Of a stretch of 64,000 nt of DNA, positions 48,741 through 64,000 are shown piece after piece; the stretch's first letter is position 1; each line of letters opens with the position of its first letter. Both the position numbers and the translations under genes were made by a program. The stretch comes from an uncultured Gemmatimonadota bacterium. GTDB taxonomy: Bacteria; JAAXHH01. The DNA lies in NCBI GenBank assembly GCA_951812955.1, contig OX638340.1, positions 2,592,001-2,656,000 on the forward strand, read 5' to 3'. A model generated the notes under the pieces. The model made no database searches, was not told the DNA's origin, and saw nothing but the letters and a program-made list of their open reading frames with translations.

Positions 48741-48885
48741 TGGAATTCTGGAGCACGCTCTGGACCGTGGTCTTCGTCCTGTGCCTGTTGATTTTTGCCG
48801 GCGTAGCTGTCTACGTCGGTGTAGGAGCGATCGGCGATATCAGGGCGTTGTTTAAGAGGATGGAGAGGCGGGGACCGAATTAATG
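48739..48885 (+). CDS. Small single-TM membrane protein, translationally coupled to the SSS transporter (candidate accessory subunit)
   Basis: Its ATG overlaps the SSS stop in a TGATG arrangement. 48 aa: 'MEFWSTLWTVVFVLCLLIFAGVAVYVGVGAIG...'. Confidence 0.4.
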
Positions 48886-48893
48886 GTAGTGTA

Positions 48894-49115
48894 TCAGTTT
48901 GAATCCGGCAGGGTCTTCCCTCTGTAGATGGCCAACCATTTGGCGTGAATAGCCTCCCAGTATTCGATGTCCCTGTCGATCTCGTCATCGACTGTTGTTC
49001 CCGTCCAGGGCGTTTCTCTGAGCGGCCTCAGCTTGTGCCATTCAATAAGAAACATCTGGTGTCTGGCATTCATCTTTGACGCCCAGTTAATGCGTCGTGT
49101 ATCTTGCACAGACAT
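48894..49115 (-). CDS. Hypothetical small protein (island-borne)
   Basis: 73-aa ORF at the island's left edge with no recognisable motif. Confidence 0.3.
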   Translation of the reverse strand: MSVQDTRRINWASKMNARHQMFLIEWHKLRPLRETPWTGTTVDDEIDRDIEYWEAIHAKWLAIYRGKTLPDSN

Positions 49116-49319
49116 AACCTTCTCCTTTTCGTGGGAGATCAGTGTTCGGCGGGCGCAAACGCCGTAGATGTACGAATGCCCTTACCCTGTTGCCGAAGGA
49201 CCTCGTTTCAAACTTCTGAGTACAAGAAAACCCTGTCGGCCTTACTGGTCAATCGGGTTTTTGTTTCATTGCATCTCTTAAGTTGAGTCACCTTAGTCTG
49301 ACGGATCTGCCATCGCCAC

Positions 49320-49529
49320 CTAAAATCGTGTTAGAGTGTCTCCAATTCCTCTAGCAATTTCTCTTGCCTCATCATCGTCAAATTCAATCCTGAAATCTTC
49401 AAGGCCTCTATTCGTTTTCTCGATGAGCTTGTCGCGTAGATCTTTTTCATGGAAATACCCTTTTAACAGTTGAGTTAAAAGGTGTTCGATGAACAGGAAT
49501 CTTTTGTAGAATGCCCTTACATCAGTCAA
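49320..49529 (-). CDS. Hypothetical small protein (island-borne)
   Basis: 69-aa ORF with a charged C-terminal half. Lies 49 bp downstream of the 119-aa ORF on the same strand. Confidence 0.3.
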   Translation of the reverse strand: MTDVRAFYKRFLFIEHLLTQLLKGYFHEKDLRDKLIEKTNRGLEDFRIEFDDDEAREIARGIGDTLTRF

Positions 49530-49578
49530 TGGGGTGAATCAGGTTGAAACAATTTCATCTTTTTTACTCCTTCTACGT

Positions 49579-49938
49579 TCACGATCCCTCTCGGCGCAGG
49601 GTTTCGTAATCCCTGGCCCTGTCGCCTATCTCTAACTCGGCCAGCGTGTCGTCGATTCCCGCCTGGTAGGCCTCTCCTACCTGCGAATTGAGCGACTTGA
49701 CCTCCGCTTCCAACTCATCGACTCTGTTTTGTAGTTTCTTTGACGGATCAGGTGTGTACTCTTCCCCAAACAGACGGCTGATAACCTCTTCGAAAGGACT
49801 GGTTGCCGGTTGAGTGACTGCAGGCGGAACATATCCTAAAGCAGCTCGTAATGCGCCCCCGCCTTGGATACCACCGCTGATTCGCTTTAATTTTCTTCTT
49901 GAATCATCAGCTGGTTGATTTTGTTTATTCAAAGGCAT
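49579..49938 (-). CDS. Hypothetical protein, coiled-coil (island-borne)
   Basis: 119-aa ORF with a predicted coiled-coil in the C-terminal half ('VDELEAEVKSLNSQVGEAYQ'). Confidence 0.35.
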   Translation of the reverse strand: MPLNKQNQPADDSRRKLKRISGGIQGGGALRAALGYVPPAVTQPATSPFEEVISRLFGEEYTPDPSKKLQNRVDELEAEVKSLNSQVGEAYQAGIDDTLAELEIGDRARDYETLRREGS

Positions 49939-50120
49939 GGCCTTTCTCCTTTCTAGGTGATGCCATTAACAGTTCGGCCGTTGCCACCGCCGGATGAAAT
50001 ACAAAGAGACCCATACAGATCTCCCACTCTGAGGTCTTGCTGAAAGCCTTCTTTCAAGTTAGCCCGGTCGACTTATGCGGTCATCCGGGTTTCCTGTATT
50101 GCCTGTCCTACCGATCAGTT

Positions 50121-50357
50121 CTAGGCGAAGATGATTTCTCTCACTACTCTCTCCGCGATAGCGTACGACAGACGCGATTCAACGTAGATAAAGAACCAAC
50201 CCTCATTGAAAACGATACGATCTACTTTCCGTTCCTCCCCTTCTTCAGCATGGATATCTCCCACGCTGACACTACGCCGGGCGGTAAGGAGTCCTATTCG
50301 AGATTGATCTGCCGACGGGTCTAATTCCAACTTCAAAGACGCGATGTTTCCTAGCAT
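50121..50357 (-). CDS. Hypothetical small protein (uncertain strand; overlaps the + ORF at 50037..50324)
   Basis: 78-aa ORF in an AT-rich region. It competes with an overlapping ORF on the plus strand and neither has motifs. Confidence 0.2.
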   Translation of the reverse strand: MLGNIASLKLELDPSADQSRIGLLTARRSVSVGDIHAEEGEERKVDRIVFNEGWFFIYVESRLSYAIAERVVREIIFA

Positions 50358-50386
50358 ACCATCCTCCGAAAAGCATGAGTTGACCG

Positions 50387-50408
50387 GCCCCGCCGCGCGG
50401 CGGGGCCG
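50387..50408. promoter_or_regulatory. Perfect 22-bp GC palindrome (strong hairpin) inside AT-rich island non-coding stretch
   Basis: 'ggccccgccgcgcggcggggcc' is identical to its own reverse complement. Confidence 0.5.
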
Positions 50409-51069
50409 TGATATACGGACCGTCTATCTGACTCGGATCCGTCGTGTACGAATCGTGGTCCTTACCGTGCAGGTACGGGTGACCTTTACACGGACCGGGA
50501 CGCGTCTCGTACGTACAGGACTCCTTCGAATCCTGGGCATAGTACGACCCTCCATTTTAAACAGGGCCACTTTTTTGTTGATTTCCACACGAGGGAGGGT
50601 TATAATACGGAGCGACCCTCAGAAAGCGCGCCCTGTTGGTCAATCACCTGTGGCCCGGAGTTCCCTATACTTCGGGCCACTTCTTTATAACGGTGTAATA
50701 TACCTTACGCGGCTTCGTTCGTCAACCTGTTTTGCGCATCATATTCTATCGTTTTCTTCCTGCTCCGCCGATCACCGCAACATGTTGTGTGCTACACATT
50801 TATTGACCTAATAACGGGTGTTTAGTACGTCGATAACATGCTCTTGCCGGAATCGGCTTTCTGGAGAACCTGGAGCTTGAACTCACGGAAGAACTGACGG
50901 CGTTTCAGGGACATGGGGTGTCTCCTCGTTCAGAAGGAAGCTTAACTCTGTGTCCCGTTCAACGGTGCAGTACATCATTCCTACCTAACCCCGCTTTGTT
51001 GTGACGTATACTACCGTGTACAAGCTCCGCAAAATTTGTTATGTACGTCGTGTGTAGGAGATTTCAACT

Positions 51070-51483
51070 ATGGAACAAATCGTTCCCCTATTTCTGAAAT
51101 ACGAATGGTGGCAAATAGTTGCGATTTTCCTCGCCTTGAGTGCGCCGGTCGCTGTTTACTGTATTTTTAAAAACTTCAACCTAACAGAATGGCGCAAAGC
51201 TCGAGACGAAAGGCACAGGGAACGAATGCAGTCCTGCTGTCCCCACGCTGAACGTGTATTGCAAGAAAACGGTGTAGTTTATTTCAAACCACTTATAAAC
51301 TCGTCCGTAAAAACTCGCGAAGGAGTCTGTTCCGAATGTGGAAAATCCTTTCTCCACGGCAGAACTGCCGTACTTGACACTGCAGTCCATTACGAAATGC
51401 ATATCGAAACATATCAAGAACGCGCAAAGGAATACAACACACTCGCCAAAAAATACGGTAAACGACTCCTGAACGTTAAGTAA
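51070..51483 (+). CDS. Hypothetical membrane-anchored protein with Cys4 zinc-ribbon-like motif
   Basis: N-terminal transmembrane helix. Cys pairs 'CCPH' and 'CSEC' are spaced as a possible zinc ribbon. Lies immediately upstream of hsdM. Confidence 0.45.
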   Translation: MEQIVPLFLKYEWWQIVAIFLALSAPVAVYCIFKNFNLTEWRKARDERHRERMQSCCPHAERVLQENGVVYFKPLINSSVKTREGVCSECGKSFLHGRTAVLDTAVHYEMHIETYQERAKEYNTLAKKYGKRLLNVK

Positions 51484-51740
51484 ACCTGGCCTCTGTTTTG
51501 TCCCACATTCGACAATGTCTACCCTTTTCACTTTACATTCCAAAAAAGCGCCTGACCGATAACAGTAAAGTGTGTATACTTTCCGCAGACATTCCAATCG
51601 ACTTACTTACATTAACCTTATAGATTTATATATAGTTATGTGACGTAATTCGGAACAGTTAAGCAGGTATATACAAACTTGCTTTTTAAACTGCCCGAAG
51701 ATTCTACAAGTCGTTAGACGGAATTCAAAGTAAAGGTATC

Positions 51741-54422
51741 ATGAGTCAAGACAAAATCACATTGGCCCAACTAGAGTCCTTCCTATTTAAAGCAGCCGAC
51801 ATCCTGCGCGGGAAGATGGATGCATCCGAATTTAAGGAGTTCATTTTCGGCATGCTGTTCCTGAAACGGCTCTCCGATGAGTTTGATCAAACGCGCGAAC
51901 AGTTACGCGAAAGGGTCTACGCCCACCTAGAACCCGATACAAAGGCAGGAGTGCTTGAGGATAAAACGTCCTATGGAGAGACATTTTACGTACCCGTTCG
52001 TGCACGTTGGCATGAGGAGTGGAAGGATGAGAATGGCGACTTAGTTCCAGCACTCAAGGATCTTAAGAGCGACATTGGCAATATGTTGAATAAAGCTATT
52101 GCTGCGGTCGAGGATGAGAACGACTCACTAGCAGGGGTGCTGAAGAACAACATTGACTTTAATGCTGTTAAGGGTAAGACGAAGATATCTGATCAAAGGT
52201 GGAAGGACTTACTCGATCATTTCAACCAACCTCAGTTTGTCCTGGTTAACGACAATTTTGAGTTCCCCGATCTACTCGGTGCAGCTTATGAATACCTGAT
52301 CAAGTATTTCGCGGACAGCGCAGGTAAAAAGGGAGGCGAGTTTTACACCCCCGCGGAGGTAGTGCGTCTGTTGGTTCAGCTAACCAAACCAACTGCCGGG
52401 AATGAAATCTATGACCCAGCTGTTGGTTCTGGTGGCTTTCTGATTCAGGCACACCAGTATGTCGAAGAGCAGGGTGAGGATCCCAACAATCTGGCCCTAT
52501 ATGGTCAGGATTCCAACGGCACCACCTGGTCGATCTGTAACATGAACATGATTCTTCACAACATCACGCGTTTCACGATTGAGAACGACGACACTTTGGA
52601 AAATCCTCTGATATTGCAGAATGGTCAGGTTCGAAAGTTCGACCGCGTGCTGGCCAATCCCCCATTTTCGCAGAACTACACCCGCGCCAACGTGAAATTT
52701 ACCAATCGTTTCCGAGAGTGGTGCCCAGAGACAGGCAAGAAAGCTGATCTAATGTTCGTCCAGCACATGTTGGCAAGTCTCAAAGGCGACGGCCACATGG
52801 CTACCATTATGCCTCACGGTGTCCTCTTTCGCGGAGGCAAGGAGAAGCTGATTCGGGAACTGTTGATAGACGACGATGTTATCGAGGCAATCATCAGTTT
52901 GCCTCCAGGGTTATTTTACGGGACTGGCATACCGGCTTGCGTGCTCGTTTGCGATAAGAACAAGCCCGACGAGTTGCGCGACAAAGTCTTATTCATCAAC
53001 GCAGACCGCGAGTATGCCGAAGGAAAGAATCAAAACAAGCTGCGGCCGGAGGATGTGGAGAAAATCGACTTTGTGTTCTCCAACAAACTCGAGATCCCCC
53101 AATATAGCCGGCTCGTACATAAATCAGAGATCGCCGACAAGCACGACTACAATCTGAACATTCGACGCTATGTAGATAATACCCCTAAGCCAGAGCCGGA
53201 GGACGTGCAAGCCCATCTAATCGGCGGCATCCCTGAATCTGAAGTTGCAGCGAAAGAAGATAGTTTCTCTAAGTTTGGCTTTCAGGCCAAAACGCTATTC
53301 TGCCCTGATCGACCAGGCTACCTCGCATTCAGAGAGTCGATTACAGGCAGATCGGTCATCAAAGAGATCATTGAAGGGGATCCATCGATCGTGCAGACGT
53401 TGAAAATACATCGCAATGCACTCAAGCAATGGTGGAACGTAGCCCGTGATGAATTCGCCGAGCTTGAGCATGGCAATCACAGCGGTCGAAAGATGCCCAA
53501 AGTGCGTCATGAGCTTATGAAGACACTCAAGGGTAAGCTCGTTCCGCTATGTGTACTCGACGAGTTCAAGAGTGCGGGCGTTTTCGTCAACTGGTGGCAG
53601 CAAATTCGCTATGACCTGAAGACCATTGTTTCAACAGGATGGCATCATACACTCATCCCAAAAGAATATCTGACCGCCGCGTTTTTCCAGAGTGATGCAG
53701 ATGCTATTGAGGAACTGGAGACCCGTATAGGTGAACTACAGGCAGAATTTGCTGAAGCCGTGGAAACTGCTCAAGAGGTCGCCGCGTATGAGCCGGAAGA
53801 AGATAAAACGGTAACGGCATCGGCCATTAAGACAGCTCTAACGGACCTCATTAATGACCTAAAGGATAGCACTGGCGAGTCGGCCAAGCGAGAGCTTAAC
53901 ATACTCAAGGCACAGGATGTTGCTATAAAGGACATAGAAAAGAAGATCAGGAGCAGCAAAATTTCATTAAAGAATAAGACCATGGAATTGGAAGACAAAC
54001 TCCAACTCAAGCGACTCGGAGGAGATGGATTCAAGAGCGAAAATCAGAGACTCATAGAGGAAGACGAAAGCCAGATTGCATTACTGAATCCAAGCAACAA
54101 AACTGAAAATACAAAGATCAATGCGTTAAATAAAGATATCGCTGTACTTGAGGAACGTATCGCCAAGACCCACGCGGTACTGGAGGCACTCGGTGGTTCA
54201 CTAACCGATGACGAAGCCAAGCATCTCATCCTCAAGAAGCTCTACGACATCGTGAGCACTGAATTCGAACGCTACCTCAATGCAGAGATACGTCACCTAA
54301 TTTCAGGTGTCGAAAAACTGTGGAGTAAATACGCCAGCAGCAGCCAGAAGATAGAAAGCGACCGAGAAATCACGCTCGGCCAGCTCAATGCATTTCTAAG
54401 TAGATTGGGATATATGGGATGA
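51741..54422 (+). CDS. hsdM: Type I restriction-modification system methyltransferase subunit (N6-adenine), with long coiled-coil C-terminal extension
   Basis: HsdM N-terminal domain ('[10 protein letters not shown]'-like '[17 protein letters not shown]'). AdoMet motif I '[12 protein letters not shown]'. Catalytic motif IV 'NPPFS'. At 893 aa it is longer than the ~500-800 aa typical of HsdM. Confidence 0.9.
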
Positions 54423-55618
54423 GTAAGAAATTTGAAACGCTATCGAAAATCGGTCTTCTTCGAATGGGAGAAACGATTATCGCAAAGGACTGTTCTGGAG
54501 ATGGTTTGCCAATCTATTCCGCAAATAAAGGGAACAAGCCATGGGCGCATTCCGACCACTTTAGATGCAAAAATGAAAGAGGCTGTATTGTCATAGGGGC
54601 AAGAGGAACTATTGGCTATCCACGTCTTCCGAAAGATGAACTGTTTGGCGCAACTCAAACCACAATCGTATTTTCTCCTGACAAAGATCATTTTATCCCG
54701 GAATTCCTGCACTACAGCCTGCAACAAGTTGATTTTGAGAGTCTCGGAGCACAGCAGGCAATTCCTATGCTCACTGTTTCCAATTTAGAGAACCTAACGA
54801 TTCGTTCGTTCAAAAAACCTGAACAATCTAAGATCGCCAAGATTCTTACAACGGTCGATCAGGCGATTGAACAGACCGAAGCGTTGATAGCAAAACAGCA
54901 ACGCACCAAGACCGGTCTGATGCAAGACCTGCTCACACGCGGTATCGACGAAGATGGAAACCTTCGCTCCGAAGACACCCATGAATTTAAAGATTCACCG
55001 TTTGGGCGTATTCCGGTGGAGTGGGTAGTGAAAGAACTAAGTGATTTTTGCGACGTAACATCCAGTAAACGCATATACTTACATGATTACAATACAGAAG
55101 GTATTCCGTTCTATCGTTCAAAAGAAATCATCGAACTGGTAAGGGAAGGAAAAACTCTTGGTGGATTATATATCACGAAAAGTAAGTATCTTGCAATAAA
55201 GCGCATCTTTGGAACTCCTAATAAGGGCGACGTACTCATTAGCTCAGTAGGAACTCTTGGAATTTGCTATTTGGTCAGGGACAACGATCGATTCTATTTT
55301 AAAGATGGAAATCTCATCTGGCTCCGTCGATTTCAAAAACATATGAATCGGATATTTTTAATAGAATTACTACCAAGGATGATCAATACCCAATTTGATG
55401 ATCTTGTGATTGGGACAAGTCAAAAGGCATTCACGATTGAGAAGCTTAAGCGTCTCAAGCTTTATTTCCCATCGACCGAGGAGCAGAATAGACTAGCGGT
55501 TTCTGTTCAACAGTTCCAAGCTAAAATCGATTGCGAGATACAAAGTCTGCAAAAACTCCGATTCCTCAAGACCGCTTTAATGCATGACCTCCTCACTGGC
55601 AAGGTTTCTGTCAGGTAG
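54419..55618 (+). CDS. hsdS: Type I restriction-modification specificity subunit
   Basis: Two target-recognition domains separated by conserved central and C-terminal helical repeats. The central conserved motif reads '[28 protein letters not shown]' and the C-terminal one '[20 protein letters not shown]'. Its ATG overlaps the hsdM stop in an ATGA arrangement. Confidence 0.85.
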
Positions 55619-55644
55619 TTAATCACAGAAGCGGAGAGCAGTAT

Positions 55645-58600
55645 ATGAGTAAAAACGAGTCTCCAGCGCACATTAAACTCGACGAAAGGAATCACGTTGA
55701 GAAGCCAATTCTTGATCAGCTTGAGGGTATGGGCTGGGAGATTATCGACCTCGACAGTCAGCAACTCCCTGTAGATACTCACCGCGAGACTTTATTGGAA
55801 GTTGTCATGTTCCCAGTGTTGCGTGAGCAACTCAAGGTCATCAATCCCTGGATAGAGAACGATCAGGTTGAAGAGGTCGTCAAGCAACTTTCTGCGAGTT
55901 TCCCAGGCACGGGGCTGACTGAGAGTAACAAGCATGTGCTTCATCTGCTGCTCGGAAACACAATCGTCAGTGAAAATCGGCAATCCGGTGAGAATAGCCC
56001 GACTGTGCGCTATATCGACTTCAAGAACCTGGACAACAACCGATTCATTGCAGTTTGCCAATTCAAAGTCCGCATCTTGGGCACGGAGAAACACATCATC
56101 CCGGATATCGTGTTATTCGTAAATGGTCTACCGGTGGTTGTAGTCGAGTGCAAGTCCCCTAAAGTAAAGGATGCCATCCCAGAGGCCATCGACCAGATAC
56201 TACGCTACAGCGAGCAGCGGGGTGACAAAGGCGAGGGAAGTGCTCCACTCTTTTATTACAACCAGTTTGTAGTCGCCACATGTCGCCAGGAGGCCAAGTT
56301 TGGGACGATAACCACGCATATTGAAAAACATTTTTTTCGTTGGGCTGATCCTTATCCAAAAACGCTCAATGATCTCGAGCATGGCTCTGGTACTCCAAAC
56401 GATCAGCAGCGCCTGGTCGCTGGGATGATGGCTAAAGATAACCTGCTCGATCTCATTCGCACCTTCACTCTGTTTTCAACCAACGATAAAGGTCAGACCA
56501 TTAAGATCGTCGGACGATATCAGCAGTACCGCGCGGTCAAAATCGCTGTTAAGCGTCTCATGGAAGGCGCGACCCCACGGGAACGCAGCGGCATCATCTG
56601 GCACACTCAGGGATCCGGTAAATCGCTGACCATGATGTTTATGGTGCGTGAGATGTACCAACAACCGAAACTGGCAAGCTGGAAAGTGGTATTCGTCACT
56701 GATCGGACACAACTCGAAAATCAGTTGAGCGAGACCAGCCAAAGCATTGGGTTCACAGTGAAGACGGCGAACAAGATCAGCGAGTTGAAGGAACTCCTGA
56801 GCACTGATACGTCGGATTTGGTCATGGGTATGATCCACAAATTTCAAGAAGACGATCTTGAAGAGACCTTCCCACAGCTAAACGACAGCCCCAATATACT
56901 GGTCATGACTGATGAAGCTCACCGTTCTCAATACAAGCTACTTGGTGCGAATCTTGACAGAGCTATACCCAATGCTGCAAAAATCGGCTATACAGGCACT
57001 CCGATTGATAAGACAGAGCAAGTCTTTGGCGACTACATCGACAAATATACCATGCGGCAGTCCATAGACGATGGTGTGACTTTGGAGATAGTCTATGAAG
57101 GTCGCACTCACAACGCGGAAGTCTCTGACCAGGAAGGTATGGATGAGGCGTTCACTGATGTGTTCAGCGATTACAACATTGAGGAAAGACTTGCAATCCT
57201 TGGCTACGGTACCCGAAGAGCCTATCTGGAAGCAGAAACAACGATTGAAGCCAAAGCCAAGGATATGATTAATCACTACCTGAAGCATGTATATCCGAAT
57301 GGCTACAAGGCACAGATTGTAGCCACTTCTCGGGAGGCTGCTGTCCGCTACAAGAAGCACGTAGACAATACCCTTGAAGCTTCAATTGCTGATCTGGAAA
57401 AATCAAATCCAAATGGTCTTGATTTGGATCTGTTAAAGTCTATTGAGACAGATGTAGTGATTTCTGGGGAAGGAAACGATTTAAGTCATCTAAAAACATA
57501 CTCAAACCCGACCAAGCACGAGAGTAGCATCAAAAGTTTCAAGATGGATTTCGGTGGTGAAGTTGACGGTCTTCATGGAAACATGGGAATACTTATTGTC
57601 AATAACATGCTTATCACGGGATTCGACGCCCCTGTAGAACAGGTTATGTATTTGGACAAAGTCATTTTTGGCCACAACTTGTTGCAGGCCATCGCAAGGG
57701 TAAATCGTGTTGCAGGTGAGGCCAAGGGTAAAGGCTTTGTAATCGATTATGTTGGGATTGGTCATAACCTAAAGAGGGCAATTGATCTTTATGATAAGAA
57801 AGAAAAGAACGAAATCATCGATACACTTGTTTTTCCTGAAGAAGCATTGCGTGAATTGGAGGATAGCCATGCCGAGATCTTAGCTTTTCGGGAAGCGAAC
57901 GGCTTAGAGGAATTGGCAGACTTGGATGCATATTACGATGTGTTTTATGATGAGGCACTACGTTTTGAATACATGCAGTCTTTCAAGAAGTTCACTAGGA
58001 ATCTGAATTCAGTGTTCCCAGCTAGGCAGGCTTTGGAATACATGGACGAATATAATGTATACGCTGAAATCAACACACTTGCTGGAAAGCATTTTAGAGA
58101 TGAACGATTAAGTATGAAGGGAATCCCACCGAAGCTCCTCGCAATCACAGACAAGTACTTGGTGTCAGAAGGTATACATCAGCAGGTCAAACCAGTCTCA
58201 ATTTTGGACGATTCATTCCAAGAATCTGTTAACAGCCATACACGTACAAAGACAAAAGCAGCTGAAATCGAGCATGCTATTCGACACCACCTAGATGTAG
58301 AATTGAATGACGATCCAGATTTGCAGGCATCCTTTGCAGAAGCGCTTGCTAAAATACTGCAAGAGTTCAAGGACAATTGGAGCAAGGTTTACGAGGAATT
58401 GGAGAAGTTACGACAGCGTATCATCAACGTTAGTAAAGAGCCCACATATGGGCTTAGTCGAAAAAAACAGATGCCATTCTTTCGATGTTACAAAAGGGAG
58501 ATGTTTGGCGAAAATGAGCTTAATGAAGATGAGATTTCACTTCTTGTCGACTTAACTAAGCAGGTATTTTCTGTGATAGAACTTGAGCTGAAGTTGATTG

Positions 58601-58773
58601 GTTTTTGGGAAAGCATTTCTGCACGCAACAAACTAAGGGCTGAAATTCAGAAAAAACTGCTTGGATCTACTTACGCGGCATTACCACACATAGTAGAGAA
58701 AAAAGACAGCATTATCAGCCGCACGATGGAGATCGCGGAGAAGAACAACGATATCATACTTTATGCGGAATAA
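55645..58773 (+). CDS. hsdR: Type I restriction enzyme endonuclease/helicase subunit
   Basis: HsdR N-terminal nuclease domain ('VVECK'). SF2 helicase motifs: Walker A 'HTQGSGKS' and DEAH-box 'MTDEAHRS'. 1042 aa. Confidence 0.9.
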   Translation: MSKNESPAHIKLDERNHVEKPILDQLEGMGWEIIDLDSQQLPVDTHRETLLEVVMFPVLREQLKVINPWIENDQVEEVVKQLSASFPGTGLTESNKHVLHLLLGNTIVSENRQSGENSPTVRYIDFKNLDNNRFIAVCQFKVRILGTEKHIIPDIVLFVNGLPVVVVECKSPKVKDAIPEAIDQILRYSEQRGDKGEGSAPLFYYNQFVVATCRQEAKFGTITTHIEKHFFRWADPYPKTLNDLEHGSGTPNDQQRLVAGMMAKDNLLDLIRTFTLFSTNDKGQTIKIVGRYQQYRAVKIAVKRLMEGATPRERSGIIWHTQGSGKSLTMMFMVREMYQQPKLASWKVVFVTDRTQLENQLSETSQSIGFTVKTANKISELKELLSTDTSDLVMGMIHKFQEDDLEETFPQLNDSPNILVMTDEAHRSQYKLLGANLDRAIPNAAKIGYTGTPIDKTEQVFGDYIDKYTMRQSIDDGVTLEIVYEGRTHNAEVSDQEGMDEAFTDVFSDYNIEERLAILGYGTRRAYLEAETTIEAKAKDMINHYLKHVYPNGYKAQIVATSREAAVRYKKHVDNTLEASIADLEKSNPNGLDLDLLKSIETDVVISGEGNDLSHLKTYSNPTKHESSIKSFKMDFGGEVDGLHGNMGILIVNNMLITGFDAPVEQVMYLDKVIFGHNLLQAIARVNRVAGEAKGKGFVIDYVGIGHNLKRAIDLYDKKEKNEIIDTLVFPEEALRELEDSHAEILAFREANGLEELADLDAYYDVFYDEALRFEYMQSFKKFTRNLNSVFPARQALEYMDEYNVYAEINTLAGKHFRDERLSMKGIPPKLLAITDKYLVSEGIHQQVKPVSILDDSFQESVNSHTRTKTKAAEIEHAIRHHLDVELNDDPDLQASFAEALAKILQEFKDNWSKVYEELEKLRQRIINVSKEPTYGLSRKKQMPFFRCYKREMFGENELNEDEISLLVDLTKQVFSVIELELKLIGFWESISARNKLRAEIQKKLLGSTYAALPHIVEKKDSIISRTMEIAEKNNDIILYAE

Positions 58774-58776
58774 CTG

Positions 58777-59460
58777 ATGAACGTGGACTATACAGTAAAG
58801 CGATCGCATAAGCGAAAGAAGCTGACAATTACAGTTGAGCGTGACCGGCAGGTTGTGATCTCCGCTCCCGAGTCAACTTCTGAGGAGGCAATTAGAAGAT
58901 ACATCGAATCGAAACGCCAGTGGATTTACGAGAAGTTGAATCACCTGCAGAAATACGAAACTCAACCTCATCCGCCTGGTAAGGAATTAGTAAATGGTGA
59001 ATCTACGCTTTATCTTGGCTCCGAGTATCAGATCCAGATTATCACTAGCAGTACGACTGAGATACGATTAGAGCAACGTTTTCTAGTTCCGAATTCTTTG
59101 GCGGGAGAAAGAAGGAAGGTATTTCAAAAATGGTATGTCGACCGGGCTAAAGAGAACATATTACCAAAAGTAAAATCGTTCGCCAGTATGCTCGGAGTGG
59201 AGTTTGCCAATGCGAAGATCATGGATAGTCGCTACCGTTGGGGCTCTTGTACAATCAAAGACAACATCAACTTAAACTGGCGTTTAATTAAAGCACCTAT
59301 GTTCGTAATCGACTATGTAGTAGTTCACGAACTCGCACATCTGATGGAGGCAAACCACACCTCTCGATTCTGGAATATCGTTAGGACGCACGCACCATTG
59401 ATGGAAAAGGCTCAAAGATGGCTTAAAGAAAATGGCCAGATACTCGAACAGGATATCTAG
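58777..59460 (+). CDS. DUF45/YgjP-like (WLM/M48-like) zinc metallopeptidase, often found with Type I RM loci
   Basis: HExxH motif 'VVHELAHLME'. Starts 3 nt after the hsdR stop. Confidence 0.75.
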   Translation: MNVDYTVKRSHKRKKLTITVERDRQVVISAPESTSEEAIRRYIESKRQWIYEKLNHLQKYETQPHPPGKELVNGESTLYLGSEYQIQIITSSTTEIRLEQRFLVPNSLAGERRKVFQKWYVDRAKENILPKVKSFASMLGVEFANAKIMDSRYRWGSCTIKDNINLNWRLIKAPMFVIDYVVVHELAHLMEANHTSRFWNIVRTHAPLMEKAQRWLKENGQILEQDI

Positions 59461-59525
59461 CGCGCAGTTCGAATAAACCAGTATCAGGTATTAACTGAAT
59501 CGTCGATTCATCCGCTTTTTTTAGA

Positions 59526-59921
59526 TTATCCGCATCCGCACACCAGCGCCTTACCCTCGGTGGCCTGCAGCCCCTCGGTTTCGTAGCCGTCCCGCATCCA
59601 CCAGTCCAGCCCGCCAATTAGTTCCTTTACGTTGAAACCCAACCTCGCCATGTTGAGCGCGCCCTTGGTCGACGCGTTGCAACCGATCCCATCGCAATAG
59701 GTTACGTACAGTGATTTTTTGTTCAGGTCGGCCGTGGAATCGGGATCCATGGTCCGGTGGGGAATGTTAACGGAGCCGGGGATATGCCGTTCGGTGTACG
59801 CTTCGGCGGACCGCGTGTCCACTACGACGATGTCATTGCCCAGGGTGATGGATTCCCACAGGTCGTAGGCATCGATCTCGTATTTCAGCTTACTCTCGTA
59901 GTGGGTAATCTGGTCTTTCAT
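59526..59921 (-). CDS. Rhodanese-like single-domain sulfurtransferase
   Basis: Active-site loop 'YCDGIGCNAS'. Start at 'MKDQ' (59921). The ORF as called runs to 59966. GC is intermediate (~55%). Confidence 0.7.
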   Translation of the reverse strand: MKDQITHYESKLKYEIDAYDLWESITLGNDIVVVDTRSAEAYTERHIPGSVNIPHRTMDPDSTADLNKKSLYVTYCDGIGCNASTKGALNMARLGFNVKELIGGLDWWMRDGYETEGLQATEGKALVCGCG

Positions 59922-60271
59922 TGTGCCTCTAACTGGTATGAGCCAAAGTGGGTGGTTCTGCGACACATCTATCTTAGGGAATACAAGAAGCTACCCAGCT
60001 CATTTCTAGTATAACAAATTAGCGTGCTGGATAGTGTATTCGTCTCAATTCTTCTTTAGGTTTATAACGCGGTTGGAATTTCTATACACGGCCATCAAGC
60101 CGAAAAATCCAGTTTATATTAGGAGTTGTGTCTGAAACTTCGGACCTATGGCGGGCATTACTCGCGAGGATTTGTAAATCTTTATATAAAACTAAACTCA
60201 AGTTACTCGCCCAATCTATCGATTAATGGTTTCATCTTAGCAGTTGATGTTTAATCTGAAATGAATGGATA

Positions 60272-61018
60272 TCAATGGACAAGAGCTTGAAACTCTTTCC
60301 CATTCATAGGCTTGTGTTTCGTCCAGCTTCCGCTCATTTCAACCAGGATTCGCTGCATCCATGAGTATGAATCAGAGGTGTAGATTTTCAGCACTCTAGC
60401 TTTGTATTCGGGATGTTCTTTCATAGCTTTAGTTAAATCATAAACCAAGTAACGAGGTGACCAACCAATCATGTGATAATCTAAAGTCTGGATTTGAACT
60501 GCCACCTTTGATACAGGATTGGTTAGTTCCAAGGTTACATACAACGGTTCATCTTCCTCTAATTTACTTAATCGGTTCTTTGCCGGTTTATTGATATGTC
60601 GAGTTCCGTGAAGAAAAAACCGGCACGTAAAGCTACCATCCGCTTCCTTGCGGATTTTCGGAAACACCTCATATGAATCAGTTACACGATTACCTCCATT
60701 AATGGATAGGATCTCAATTGGATCTGCTTCGTCACAGAGATCAAACCCCTTAAGGTAGTCCTCAAATTCTGGCCTCGATCGATTCAGAATTCGATTCTTA
60801 AATAACGGAAACAACTCCTTTGATGTATATTCATGGTCGAAACTAGGGAATTCAACCAGTGGAGCGAATCGTGCTTTTTCCATTGCCCGTTTTGCGCCGT
60901 AGATATAACGAAACTTAAAGAAAGGTTCGTTGATATCGGCATCAAGTCGACCTACGGGATACCATTCTCGGGTTGTTACCTGATCTTGCCAAGCAAGAAA
61001 AAGTGTTCTGAAGTTCAC
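60272..61018 (-). CDS. Hypothetical 248-aa protein, translationally coupled partner of the HipA-like kinase
   Basis: GTG start overlapping the kinase stop in a GTGA arrangement. No recognisable motif. AT-rich codon usage like the rest of the island. Confidence 0.5.
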   Translation of the reverse strand: MNFRTLFLAWQDQVTTREWYPVGRLDADINEPFFKFRYIYGAKRAMEKARFAPLVEFPSFDHEYTSKELFPLFKNRILNRSRPEFEDYLKGFDLCDEADPIEILSINGGNRVTDSYEVFPKIRKEADGSFTCRFFLHGTRHINKPAKNRLSKLEEDEPLYVTLELTNPVSKVAVQIQTLDYHMIGWSPRYLVYDLTKAMKEHPEYKARVLKIYTSDSYSWMQRILVEMSGSWTKHKPMNGKEFQALVH

Positions 61019-61905
61019 GAATCTATCTCCAATAGTTTTTGACGGTTATATAACATTAAATTCATTGCGAATTGTCGGGCGTGTATGCTCATCCAATCAT
61101 CTGGAATACGATTAACGATTTCCTCAAGGCTGCTTATGTCAAGTTGGTAGAGTCTTTGCAAAACGGAACTAAAAGACTCCGGTAGTTCATTGAATGTAGT
61201 GCGCACGACGCCAAGGGGGCTTAGCCCTCTAGTGTCTTCGCTAGACCTGTAAATCGGGCTTCGACCTTTTTCGGCATATTGTCCAACTCTATCCTCATCT
61301 AACAATCGAATACGCCTGTCATCATCGATTTCTCTTCCCAGAGACGATGCGTGGTCATATGACGGTGCCATAGTTTTCGACACCATAGAAAAATCCATCA
61401 AAACTCCCCAGTTTTCGTGATGTCGATCAGTGTTTCCAATAAACGCATCTAAGATTATGTATTCACAGAAAGTTTGTTTTGCACTATCGGCTTTTTCTTG
61501 TTCAAATACTGTCTCAAGAACGCTCCAGATATTAAAGATGGTATGGTCTGATTGCTTTTGTGTCTTTTCTGGCTCATATTCATTAAATATAAAACTCAGA
61601 AGTTGGTTACCATGAATCAGTTCATGGTAACGATCGGTAAATGACTTGGTAGCTGTTCCTTTGGTTTGCCTGAAAACGGCTAATTCGACGATTGCATGTG
61701 GGATATTGAGTAATTCTGCAACTTCAGATGCAACCTTTTCAGCCCAATGTTCGCCCCTACTCTCTCGATGGTATTTAAAAAGCCATAGTTCATCTTCAGA
61801 TTCGGATCGATTGAACCAGAATTTAGGTTTGCTTCCCATTTCTTCCTGAAGATACTGGTCTTCCTTAATTTCCTCGATCTGATAGTCATTCAACTTCCGC
61901 CCCAT
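61015..61905 (-). CDS. HipA-family (HipA_C-like) Ser/Thr kinase, short form lacking the HipA N-terminal subdomain
   Basis: 'GSKPKFWF' resembles the Gly-rich ATP-binding loop of HipA. The catalytic motif 'ILDAFIGNTDRHHENWG' matches the HipA/CtkA 'GNxDxHxxN' pattern, and 'APSYDHAS' matches HipA 'xPxYDxxS'. Confidence 0.6.
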   Translation of the reverse strand: MGRKLNDYQIEEIKEDQYLQEEMGSKPKFWFNRSESEDELWLFKYHRESRGEHWAEKVASEVAELLNIPHAIVELAVFRQTKGTATKSFTDRYHELIHGNQLLSFIFNEYEPEKTQKQSDHTIFNIWSVLETVFEQEKADSAKQTFCEYIILDAFIGNTDRHHENWGVLMDFSMVSKTMAPSYDHASSLGREIDDDRRIRLLDEDRVGQYAEKGRSPIYRSSEDTRGLSPLGVVRTTFNELPESFSSVLQRLYQLDISSLEEIVNRIPDDWMSIHARQFAMNLMLYNRQKLLEIDS

Positions 61906-62439
61906 TTTTCTCGGTCTATGTCATTGGGCCTTAACATCCTGTTTTGCAATATCCAATGCGATGTTTGTTTTTTACGGTCCATCCCCAGTCACTAATGCGT
62001 CCACTTATGGCCTTTGGACAGATAAATTGCATGTCCTCGGTTTCCTCGGCTCGGTAGGAATCCTGCCGACTTGGACCACACGTCATTTCACGTCTGAGTG
62101 GCGGTTTTCACGACATGGCCCTCCAGTATGTGTCATTTCCTTATTTAACGCTATTAAACCAAAAAGTACCAGATGAACTGCAGGTGCTCCTCCAACTTGT
62201 CTGAGCACGTTCAATAGATCTCGATCATAATTTCGACTAAGTCTACGACAGTCATCCGTATTTCGCAATCCTTTCTCAAGCCGTAGAGCGGTGAAGTTAC
62301 GATCAGTTTTGAAACTGTCGTCTGGGAAAATTGCTATATATGTAAAATGTCTTCGTAGACTAGGTTTAGCGAAAAACTAATTACATCACGACTAGACTTG
62401 TCTGTGGATTTGCCATCATAGTCTGGCAATTTTCACCAA

Positions 62440-62457
62440 TGTCTACCCAGGTAGACA
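62440..62457. promoter_or_regulatory. 18-bp inverted repeat, candidate operator upstream of the HipA-like operon
   Basis: 'tgtctacc ca ggtagaca' has perfect 8-bp arms. It lies about 535 bp upstream of the kinase start on the minus strand, in an AT-rich leader. Confidence 0.3.
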
Positions 62458-62839
62458 CATACTCTGGGTGACTCCTTTCGGGATGAAGGCGGACAGGTCC
62501 GCCCTGTCCGACCGAACATAAATCTTTGTTCGGTATTGCAATTATACGGTTTTCCGGGGGCCATAGCAATACTAAATTGAACAGGTACTATTCAGATGCG
62601 ATTTCTAATTGATACACATCCGCGTGTTGATCAGTACAGGTCAATATACTGGTCAATACCGTCTTGCTGTCTTGACCGTACAGCACTTCTTTTTCTAAGC
62701 ATTCCCACGCTTACTATAGAAAGTGTTTCAGTTTCTTTGGCGAACCATTTCCGTCAAATCGGTGATAATTCACCTCCATCGACAACAGGGGTAATCTCAC
62801 ATTTCTGCTAATTACCTAAGCCTTAAAACCACCATCCAG

Positions 62840-64000
62840 TGGATCGGCCTGATCGCCGGTCCAGTCGTGGCGATCCTGCTCTACAGCCAGTTGCCCCATG
62901 CGTACATGAGCGGCACGGGCGAGGTGGTGGCGTTCTCGAACGCCGGCCGTGCGACATTGGCCCTGGCGGTGTGGATGGCGATCTGGTGGATGACAGAGGC
63001 CGTCGAGCTTTACGCCACGGCATTGTTGCCCCTGGTCGCCCTTCCGTTGGCCGGTGCGTCACCGGTGCGGGAAGCGGCCGCTCCCTACGCACACGAGTTG
63101 ATCTTCCTCTTCATGGGCGGTTTTCTCATCGCCCTGGCCATGCAGCGATGGGGGCTCCACCGACGCATGGCGTTCAAGGCCCTGCGTGCGGCCGGCGACC
63201 ACCCGGCGGGCATCGTGGCGTGCTTCATGGGCGTGACGGCCTTTTTCAGCATGTGGGTGTCCAACACGGCCACCGCGGTCATGATGCTCCCCATTGCCCT
63301 CAGCATCATCGCCTTGGTGGAGCAGGTGGAACCCGGTAGCGTGGCAGGCGGCGCTGGAAACGGCAGCACAGATAACAATGGTGCAGGAAGCGGAAATTCT
63401 GCCGCCGGAAACGGTGGCCCCGGAAGCGGCGTAGCAGTAGACGGTGACACGGGCAACGGCGGCCCCGGAAACAAAGGGCCTGAAACAAAGACGCGGCCCC
63501 ATTTCGCCCTGTGCCTGCTTCTGGGCATCGCCTACGCCGCATCCATCGGCGGGATCGGTACGATCATCGGCACGCCGCCCAACGTATTCCTCGCGTCCTT
63601 CATCCAGTCCAACCTGGGCCAGGAGATCAGCTTCGTCCGGTGGATGGGCGTGGGACTTCCCCTGGTGGCCGTTTTCCTGCCGCTGACGTGGCTGATGCTG
63701 ACCCGAGTCCTTTATCCCCTTCGGGCCGTGCGCATCGAGGGAAGCCGGGAGGTGACGGATAAGGCCTACCGGGAACTGGGCTCCATGTCGCGGGGGGAGA
63801 GGGTCGTGCTGGCGGTGTTCCTCCTCGCCGCCGTATCCTGGATTGCCCGTCCGTTGCTGGTCCAGGTCCAGATAGGTGACCTGACCCCGCTGGCCGGTCT
63901 GTCCGATCCGGTCATCGCCATGGTTGCGGCGCTGGCCCTCTTCGTCGTGCCGGTGGACGTAAAACGGCGAATCTTCGTGATGAACTGGGAAACGGCCGTG
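62840..64000 (+). CDS. SLC13/DASS family anion:Na+ symporter (partial; runs off window end; no canonical start codon at its 5' end)
   Basis: Frame is open from 62795 to the window end. Return to ~67% GC. Hydrophobic transmembrane segments and Gly-rich loop 'GAGNGSTDNNGAGSGN'. Internal ATG at 62906 and TTG at 62891. Confidence 0.55.

Follow-up and report, generated by a model that had tools for sequence, protein, structure and literature searches.

A 712-bp stretch of a Gemmatimonadota defence island is probably a mosaic of a small-gene cassette head, an insertion-sequence stump and a gene upstream region

Results

The stretch and its place in the island

We analysed positions 50358–51069 of a 64-kb stretch of DNA from an uncultured Gemmatimonadota bacterium (this whole 64-kb stretch is called the window below). 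The segment is 712 bp long and had been proposed, on account of a GC palindrome and repeated hairpins, to be a structured non-coding RNA (ncRNA) or regulatory element inside a defence island. The window has a backbone of 60–65% GC and a low-GC island (40–51% GC) at about 48,885–62,822, and the stretch exactly fills the gap between two open reading frames (ORFs) of this island, one of 78 aa that starts at 50357 on the − strand and one of 137 aa that starts at 51070 on the + strand. Our results suggest that the 712 bp are a mosaic of three pieces, i.e. the head of a small-gene cassette, a stump of an IS3-family insertion sequence (IS) and the upstream region of the 137-aa gene, and not a free-standing ncRNA; we put the probability of this reading at roughly 0.6. 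Accordingly divided, 50358–50839 would be the upstream end of a mobile small-gene cassette on the − strand, 50840–50974 would be a dead IS3-family stump, and 50975–51069 would be a short segment in front of the 137-aa gene, which itself lies ahead of a type I restriction–modification (R–M) operon. The homology, the boundaries, the identity of the IS, the substitution patterns and the predicted stems are taken here as established at the level of sequence.

A small-gene cassette shared with unrelated contexts

The small-gene cassette spans 48885–50839 on the − strand (∼1.95 kb) and comprises a predicted promoter, a leader and ORFs of 38, 78, 119, 69 and 73 aa, with its upstream end forming the left 482 bp of the stretch (50358–50839). 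In blastn, window positions 48878–50832 gave an alignment of 1964 bp (84.7% identity) with contig L087, where the surroundings are unrelated, and positions 49040–50974 aligned with contig L089 at 97.6% identity. The defence island around the L087 copy is not that of the window and holds a type I R–M system of another kind, along with PIN and AlbA_2/Fic-like genes; the cassette is thus found in defence islands in both the window and L087. The same left boundary, GGTAGTGTATCAG (48885/6), was seen in three contexts. Judged from these alignments, 50358–50839 is the upstream end of a discrete cassette with all of its genes on the − strand.

Copies of the cassette are rare: two further contigs (L087 and L089) were found to carry it, and three more (L088, L090 and L091) its 73-aa end module alone. 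This module (48885–49115, −) corresponds to 1911–2132 in L088, 2253–2432 in L091, 10921–11122 in L087 and 10001–10168 in L090, and adjoins hsd genes in L088 and L091. In L088, a HicB-like antitoxin gene lies directly behind the 73-aa ORF, which may be a toxin-like partner of that antitoxin.

Compared with L087, 18 of 25 substitutions in the 73-aa ORF and 25 of 46 in the 119-aa ORF fall at codon position 3. The 78-aa ORF (50121–50357, −), with its Shine–Dalgarno site GGAGG at 50367–50363, lies just outside the stretch; 11 of its 20 substitutions are at codon position 3, and an exhaustive single-ORF search recovered a relative on L087, P0003, at 88% identity (E = 1.9e-26). An AlphaFold2 model of this ORF was uninformative, with a predicted local distance difference test (pLDDT) score of 48. 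Apart from the L087 copy P0003, the four larger cassette ORFs had no match to a family in Pfam or NCBIfam, and the small ORFs had no match in Pfam, NCBIfam, PHROGs or PADLOC. Pfam applied to all six frames gave no match. Exact look-ups of five window proteins gave no record, although three of the five are present in the clustered collection. Two long chimeric protein queries returned no relative among the ∼8000 candidates to which each was limited, a negative that is unreliable because the 88%-identical relative of the 78-aa ORF was missed. A search of plasmid and phage DNA gave no match for 50100–51100 or for the whole cassette, and exact patterns for the IS end, hairpin P1, the GC palindrome and a conserved 26-mer (the first three are described below) had 0 occurrences in genome, metagenome and viral collections.

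A 38-codon arginine-rich ORF heads the cassette

The first ORF of the cassette is a 38-codon ORF at 50540–50424 (−, MPRIRRSPVRTRRVPVRVKVTRTCTVRTTIRTRRIRVR), preceded by the Shine–Dalgarno site GGAGG (50553–50549, 8 nt upstream). It contains 14 Arg residues and uses all six Arg codons. Between the window and L087 it carries 8 substitutions, seven of them synonymous and at codon position 3 and one changing V to I, and its start, stop and Shine–Dalgarno site are kept. Its divergence is 6.8% vs 13–19% in the flanks, and the two 1-nt indels of L087 nearby fall just outside it. This is the pattern of a protein-coding ORF under purifying selection, as judged from one diverged homologue and 8 substitutions. 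The original prediction held that no convincing ORF is present and that the only long one looks like translated non-coding DNA. The second part holds, as the 155-aa ORF on the + strand is spurious and is broken in the L087 homologue; the first fails on the coding substitution pattern of the 38-codon ORF. The predicted peptide is highly basic and not hydrophobic, with a grand average of hydropathy (GRAVY) of −0.79. One may speculate that its alternating hydrophobic/basic pattern would suit nucleic-acid or membrane binding.

The same substitutions have to be weighed on the other strand, where what is encoded in 50358–50540 could be a shortened form or a remnant of the 155-aa frame. Here the two strands have coinciding third codon positions. 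The + frame also looks conserved in 50424–50540, with only 2 amino-acid changes, and the phase bias reaches into 50358–50423 (7/11 substitutions). Against this, the + frame has no Shine–Dalgarno site, its ATG at 50344 overlaps the start of the 78-aa gene, 1-nt deletions in L087 at 50368 and 50548 break it, its in-frame TTG at 50380 is lost in L087, and there is no phase bias beyond 50540. The − strand is preferred because the Shine–Dalgarno site, start and stop are on it, whereas the + frame is broken by the L087 indels and loses its TTG start, and because the phase bias ends at 50540. We consider coding on the + strand very improbable.

A predicted promoter and folded leader upstream of the ORF

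A sigma-70-type promoter, TTGACG-17-TATATT, was found on the − strand at 50725–50697, matching 10 of the 12 consensus positions and predicting a start near 50690. Counting this one, the 14-kb island contains only 3 sites of this kind. Relative to L087, the −35 hexamer carries 0/6 and the −10 hexamer 1/6 substitutions (TATATT to TACATT), i.e. jointly 1/12, vs 9/17 in the spacer.

This uneven divergence also bears on an alternative, that the locus is decaying junk at a hotspot, with relic terminators, a chance ORF and a similarity to L087 and L089 that reflects recent common descent only. Such a view is in line with the presence of an IS stump, with a hotspot that has three fillings in relatives (described below), with the 1-nt indels or stop found in several cassette ORFs in L087, and with the lack of a family match in the libraries scanned, P0003 aside. 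However, the divergence is strongly non-uniform, ranging from 6.8% in the small ORF to 53% in the promoter spacer with the stems spared, and substitutions concentrate at codon position 3 in the 38-codon, 73-aa and 119-aa ORFs. The L087 indels, moreover, may be long-read assembly errors. We noted that L087, L088, L089 and the contig of a further IS copy (L082 7844–9090) are low-coverage long-read assemblies, with names ending in _2x_l, _6x_l or _7x_l; 1-nt indels and frameshifts in IS and cassette ORFs of these contigs may be assembly errors and not pseudogenisation. Decay as the whole explanation thus appears quite unlikely.

Downstream of the promoter, two helices are predicted. The first, hairpin P1 (50680–50650, −), has a 12-bp stem about 10 nt from the predicted mRNA 5′ end and is the GGCCCG-N15-CGGGCC hairpin pointed out earlier, which is indeed present as part of a stem pairing 50650–50661 with 50669–50680. 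Compared with L087, the P1 stem carries 2/24 substitutions, the loop 3/7, and the next 20 nt carry 8; both stem substitutions are at one position, which is already mismatched on the − strand. The second, a long-range helix termed P2 (50560–50641, −), is formed by ACAGGGCG pairing with GUGGCCCUGU, contains the first copy of the motif GGGCCACTT, and was predicted independently from the window and from L087. Several one-sided changes in L087 keep their pairs via G·U on the − strand. We then took the 150-nt stretch upstream of the small ORF, folded one sequence, and counted the pairs broken by the substitutions of the other against position-shuffled substitutions. On the − strand, fewer leader pairs were broken than in the shuffled sets, with p = 0.026 using the window as reference and p = 0.0008 using L087; on the + strand the result was inconsistent (p = 0.79 and p = 0.008, respectively). 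The Shine–Dalgarno site of the small ORF has an unpaired probability of 0.34–0.41 in both sequences. An alternative-pairing switch using the two GGGCCACTT copies found no support in folding.

An mRNA initiated at this promoter would start near 50690, and its ∼150-nt leader would fold into a 5′-proximal hairpin and a long-range helix that partly covers the Shine–Dalgarno site. Together, the evidence points to a − strand mRNA leader and not to an independent ncRNA, which we regard as the probable though by no means certain nature of this segment. The earlier suggestion of an ncRNA or regulatory element is thus retained in the sense of an mRNA leader, both stems being conserved in L087, and is given up in the sense of an independent ncRNA.

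A candidate small RNA on the opposite strand

The P1 hairpin can also be read on the + strand, where it forms part of a candidate free-standing small RNA (sRNA) of ∼75 nt (50613–50688), possibly an antisense regulator of the − strand leader. A promoter-like sequence, TTGATT-17-TATAAT, is found at 50578–50606 (+), with a start near 50613, and the terminator would be the hairpin at 50650–50680 followed by TTCTTTAT. In a strict terminator scan (stem of at least 8 bp, at least 5 GC pairs, T-run), this hairpin with TTCTTTAT is the stronger of only two terminator-like sites in 64 kb. The promoter-like site matches the consensus at 10/12 positions and is located 44 nt upstream of the hairpin; a site of this quality would occur by chance within 150 nt with a probability of about 0.016. 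The 79-nt segment folds at z = −4.6, and the stem contains one G·U pair that in the window exists only on the + strand. In L087, however, several of these features are degraded. The hexamers are hit at key positions and read TTGGTT and TGTAAT, the latter without the invariant A2. The T-run TTCTTTAT is altered to TTCCATGT, and A·A takes the place of the G·U pair. With the window as reference, 7/8 of the changed + strand pairs are broken. No Rfam match was found either. A free-standing sRNA would be expected to conserve its own promoter and Rho-independent terminator, and here both are degraded in L087. The sRNA is therefore ranked low, its promoter hexamers, T-run and G·U pair all being degraded, and we hold it to be an improbable explanation of the hairpin; the + strand promoter-like site, as judged from the aligned copies, is probably non-functional.

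As a separate observation from the same scan, the 49-kb backbone (1–48800) has no canonical intrinsic terminator, and both terminator-like sites of the window are in the island.

A conserved GC hairpin between the small ORF and the 78-aa ORF

The GC-only perfect palindrome that first drew attention to the stretch is real. It comprises 24 nt at 50385–50408, the 22-mer described before being 50386–50407. Every other perfect palindrome in the 64-kb window is shorter, and this one occurs there once. As RNA it folds at about −25 kcal/mol. On the − strand, the resulting hairpin (50408–50385) begins 15 nt past the stop of the small ORF and ends 17 nt before the Shine–Dalgarno site of the 78-aa ORF. 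In L087, the outer C-G pair is replaced by U-A, a compensatory change; one C-G pair becomes U·G on the − strand, equivalent to A·C on the + strand; and two changes turn the loop from GCGC into GGGA, as read on the − strand (TCCC on +). None of the three stem substitutions disrupts pairing on the − strand. The stem is thus conserved and the perfect palindrome is specific to the window and L089, since L087 has stem changes that keep pairing and an altered loop.

These changes are informative for another reading, in which the palindromes are DNA operators for a repressor, possibly a small protein of the cassette itself. Relative to the − strand promoter, the inverted repeat GTGGCCCG-N15-CGGGCCAC occupies +10 to +40, and the GC palindrome precedes the 78-aa gene; repressor sites are typically placed in this way with respect to a promoter. 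Both inverted repeats keep the sequence of their outer arms, and the small palindromes CAACATGTTG and TGTGT-GCT-ACACA are perfectly conserved upstream of the promoter. An operator would not, however, account for the asymmetric centre of the GC palindrome in L087 (TCCC) or for a stem change that is tolerated only as a U·G pair of − strand RNA, and profile scans of the cassette proteins with Pfam, NCBIfam, PHROGs and PADLOC gave no DNA-binding domain. Binding of a repressor to these sites is unlikely in our estimate, and the hairpins most likely act at the RNA level.

For the GC hairpin as an element of the − strand mRNA, a role as 3′-end protector or as partial transcription stop is favoured because it has no U-tract. 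It would protect the 3′ end of a short transcript or partly stop transcription and, standing between two cistrons, would set the ratio of small-ORF to downstream expression.

An IS3-family stump

The middle piece, 50840–50974 on the − strand, comprises 135 bp with the terminal repeat TGTACTGCACC starting at 50974 and an OrfA start codon at 50914, 60 nt downstream of TGTACTGCACC. The 30-codon ORF that begins there (50914–50822, −) has a good Shine–Dalgarno site and consists of the first 25 codons of OrfA and 5 foreign codons; it opens with MSLKRRQFFREFKLQVLQK, which we take to be the usual start of an IS3-family OrfA. A 45-aa read-through query identified P0001 and P0002 at 92% identity over 26 aa, and the contigs of these two proteins share with the window only 50843/4–50974. 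Five contigs match the stump in all, over 131–132 bp (from 50843/4) at 87–89% identity, ending exactly at 50974. In a three-way alignment, similarity starts at the TG of TGTACTGCACC and the DNA outside is unrelated in all three contexts, while past ∼50840 the window diverges from the two other copies. TGTACTGCACC is identical to the first 11 nt of the left terminal repeat of E. coli IS150 (K-12 record).

The relatives of the stump carry transposase domains. P0002 aligns with the OrfA helix-turn-helix family PF01527 (HTH_Tnp_1) at E = 7e-5, its score of 23.4 bits being just below the cut-off of 24.1. In L082 the copy extends into HTH_21 (4e-11), rve (1.7e-15) and rve_2, and in L085 into an rve pseudogene (5e-8). 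The 25 OrfA codons of the window had no Pfam match, and the 30-aa piece was unmatched in Pfam and NCBIfam profiles. OrfB (rve) and the right inverted repeat are absent from the window, pseudogene remains being present in L082 and L085, and the piece is therefore a stump and not an element. Based on the terminal-repeat boundary, the changes of flank and the transposase domains in relatives, 50840–50974 is, at the level of homology, the 135-bp left end of an IS3-family element. No intact copy was found, the exact end patterns being absent from genome, metagenome and viral collections, and tblastn of the 30-aa peptide against plasmids returned nothing. The original prediction had named a degraded gene remnant as the finding that would speak against it, and such a remnant does occupy 135 of the 712 bp.

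The R–M segment and a recombination hotspot

The right-hand piece, 50975–51069 (+), covers the 95 bp from the IS end to the ATG of the 137-aa ORF, with the Shine–Dalgarno site AGGAGA, and belongs to an 11.8-kb segment (50975–62823) that holds the R–M genes and a candidate defence system, PDC-M03. Next to hsdM, on its upstream side, is the 137-aa ORF (51070–51483, +), which encodes a hydrophobic segment at the N-terminus and CxxC-type cysteines; it had no family match, and the identical protein is recorded in the public collection for the source contig only. The type I R–M operon consists of hsdM (51741–54422), hsdS (54419–55618) and hsdR (55645–58773), and the island also holds a YgjP-like gene, a rhodanese gene and a HIRAN/HipA-like pair. 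In this pair, the HIRAN-domain protein (60272–61018, −) corresponds to component B of the PADLOC candidate PDC-M03 (E = 3e-72), and the HipA-like kinase (61015–61905, −) to component A (E = 3e-87).

Relatives of the hsdM (893 aa)-hsdS-hsdR-ygjP module (51741–59460) occur at 58–80% protein identity in 80 genomes from many phyla, with hosts that include Binatia, Nitrospirae, Acidobacteria, Verrucomicrobia, cyanobacteria and an archaeon. In the 80 loci around the HsdM relatives, DNA homology begins exactly at the hsdM ATG; therefore, nothing upstream travels with the R–M module.

The island occupies a site that is filled differently in close relatives. Contigs L084–L086 share the window backbone at 96% identity up to 48872 and then continue at 87% on the Na-sulphate symporter side; between these flanks they carry a degenerate, nearly full-length IS3 element and other genes. 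The filling of L089 is the cassette with the IS stump followed by 1.2 kb of other DNA, without the 11.8-kb segment, and that of the window is the cassette, the IS stump and the 11.8-kb segment. The hotspot (48872–62822) is bounded by an SSF symporter gene with a 49-aa ORF and by the Na-sulphate symporter gene, and thus shows three fillings in close relatives. A suspected kinship between a 578-aa protein of L087 and a 570-aa protein of L084 was examined, and the two were found to be unrelated. In summary, these comparisons document a recombination hotspot in which the cassette and the R–M/PDC-M03 segment are stacked on either side of the IS3 stump.

Folding, composition and RNA families across the stretch

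Whole-region folding was stronger than that of shuffled sequences, with z = −5.5 on the + strand and z = −2.7 on the − strand (20 shuffles each). This excess of structure is local: 50551–50700 is the only outlier (z = −3.9, rank 8/954 among 150-nt windows), and the other parts fold like shuffles. The strongest z-scores within 40–64 kb (down to −5.2) come from 150-nt windows elsewhere, in 62401–62900, within 925 bp poor in genes at the right-hand end of the island, and in 51551–51750, between the 137-aa ORF and hsdM. As described before, GGGCCACTT is present exactly twice, at 50564 and 50674; at least 2 copies arose in 9/100 window shuffles, so the repeat alone is not significant. The surrounding DNA was called AT-rich, which does not apply, as its GC content of 0.45–0.55 is merely below the 0.60–0.65 of the backbone. 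The 5-mer GTACG has 6 of the 14-kb island's 10 copies in 50446–51043, four of which are spaced 27–36 nt apart inside the small ORF. This enrichment is significant against the island background only (Bonferroni 0.002, 5-mers) and probably not against local composition.

Searches for known RNA classes were negative. An Rfam scan gave 0 matches at gathering thresholds, with the best permissive hits at E = 0.15–10 being far under threshold, and a tRNA/tmRNA search of the region found none. For a retron, the Pfam scans of island ORFs of at least 120 aa contained no reverse transcriptase, in agreement with the earlier note, and yielded only HsdM/S/R, YgjP-like, rhodanese, HIRAN and HipA-like proteins. 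Type III toxin–antitoxin systems have ∼36-nt tandem direct repeats upstream of an endoribonuclease gene; no ToxI-like tandem repeats were found in 48800–51800 with the minimum score lowered to 30.

Discussion

The mosaic gives each part of the 712 bp a separate origin, and the leader, the small ORF and the GC hairpin on its left fit together as parts of one predicted − strand transcript. The 5′ stem-loop and the long-range helix would stabilise the mRNA or gate translation by limiting access to the Shine–Dalgarno site, and the small ORF would be translated into a very basic Arg-rich peptide.

Several points weigh against this interpretation, among them the coincidence of third codon positions and the terminator- and promoter-like sites on the + strand already described. 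The − strand promoter was judged by the sigma-70 consensus, which may not be the type used by the host. A chance ORF of this length with a Shine–Dalgarno site has an estimated probability of roughly 0.14 in the stretch, and searches of Pfam and the PDB gave no homologue of the small ORF. With no U-tract next to it on either strand, the GC hairpin is not a canonical terminator. The only informative homologue is L087, which is 11–15% diverged; L089, at 98% identity, stems from a 2x long-read contig. Each of the substitution tests consequently rests on 8–20 events.

A bolder proposal would unite the leader, the Arg-rich ORF and the GC hairpin in a novel module that stands on its own at the head of an undescribed small-protein cassette moving between type I R–M defence islands. 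The module would encode a toxic cationic peptide, or its mini-ORF would trap ribosomes or tRNAs, with the folded leader gating the output. We offer this tentatively and would regard it as rather doubtful. If expressed, the locus adds a small-protein family and a candidate cis-regulatory leader that were missed by gene callers and Rfam. It also illustrates that a stretch resembling a structured ncRNA can be an IS scar joined to an mRNA leader with an unannotated mini-gene.

Comparison with known systems

The stump resembles IS150 (insJ/insK) in that its terminal repeat starts with the same 11 nt and its first ORF begins 60 nt inside the end. Its OrfA N-terminus, MSLKRRQF.REFKLQVLQ, appears to be of the HTH_Tnp_1 OrfA type, and its relatives carry HTH_21 and rve remains of OrfB. 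It differs from IS150 in that 135 bp are left here, without OrfB, the right end or the frameshift site, and in an OrfA sequence unlike InsJ.

Among toxin–antitoxin systems, type I was considered, in which a hydrophobic toxin and a conserved antisense RNA are looked for; here the peptide is not hydrophobic, as its GRAVY value indicates, and the antisense promoter is not conserved. A further comparison is with CreT of CreTA, a small RNA toxin with an Arg-codon mini-ORF. By analogy, the present locus has a strong Shine–Dalgarno site, a short ORF loaded with Arg codons (among them the rare AGA, AGG, CGA and CGG), a hairpin close behind and a place in a defence island. In contrast to CreT, the substitutions of the small ORF are synonymous across many codon types, which fits constraint at the protein level, and there is no CRISPR-like antitoxin.

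Leader-peptide attenuators (trpL, hisL and erm-type) share with the locus a promoter, a structured leader, a short ORF with a Shine–Dalgarno site, a GC hairpin and a larger gene, and the ORF and the hairpin are both present and conserved here. Unlike in attenuators, the GC hairpin lacks a U-tract after its stem and leaves the next Shine–Dalgarno site uncovered; the ORF has 38 codons, is conserved as a protein and has no run of one regulatory codon; the downstream genes of the cassette have no known link to arginine; and no alternative-pairing switch or clear alternative fold is evident in folding. The other comparison is with mRNA-stabilising hairpins, such as the ompA 5′ hairpin and the repetitive extragenic palindromic (REP) hairpins in malEFG. 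The GC hairpin is not a repeated REP family, as it is single-copy in the window and in the 91 loci compared. The arrangement is nevertheless analogous, with a stable hairpin ∼10 nt from the predicted 5′ end as in ompA and a very stable hairpin after the first cistron as in malEFG. Seen against these systems, the IS stump is ordinary, and the leader with its small ORF is uncharacterised but of a familiar kind.

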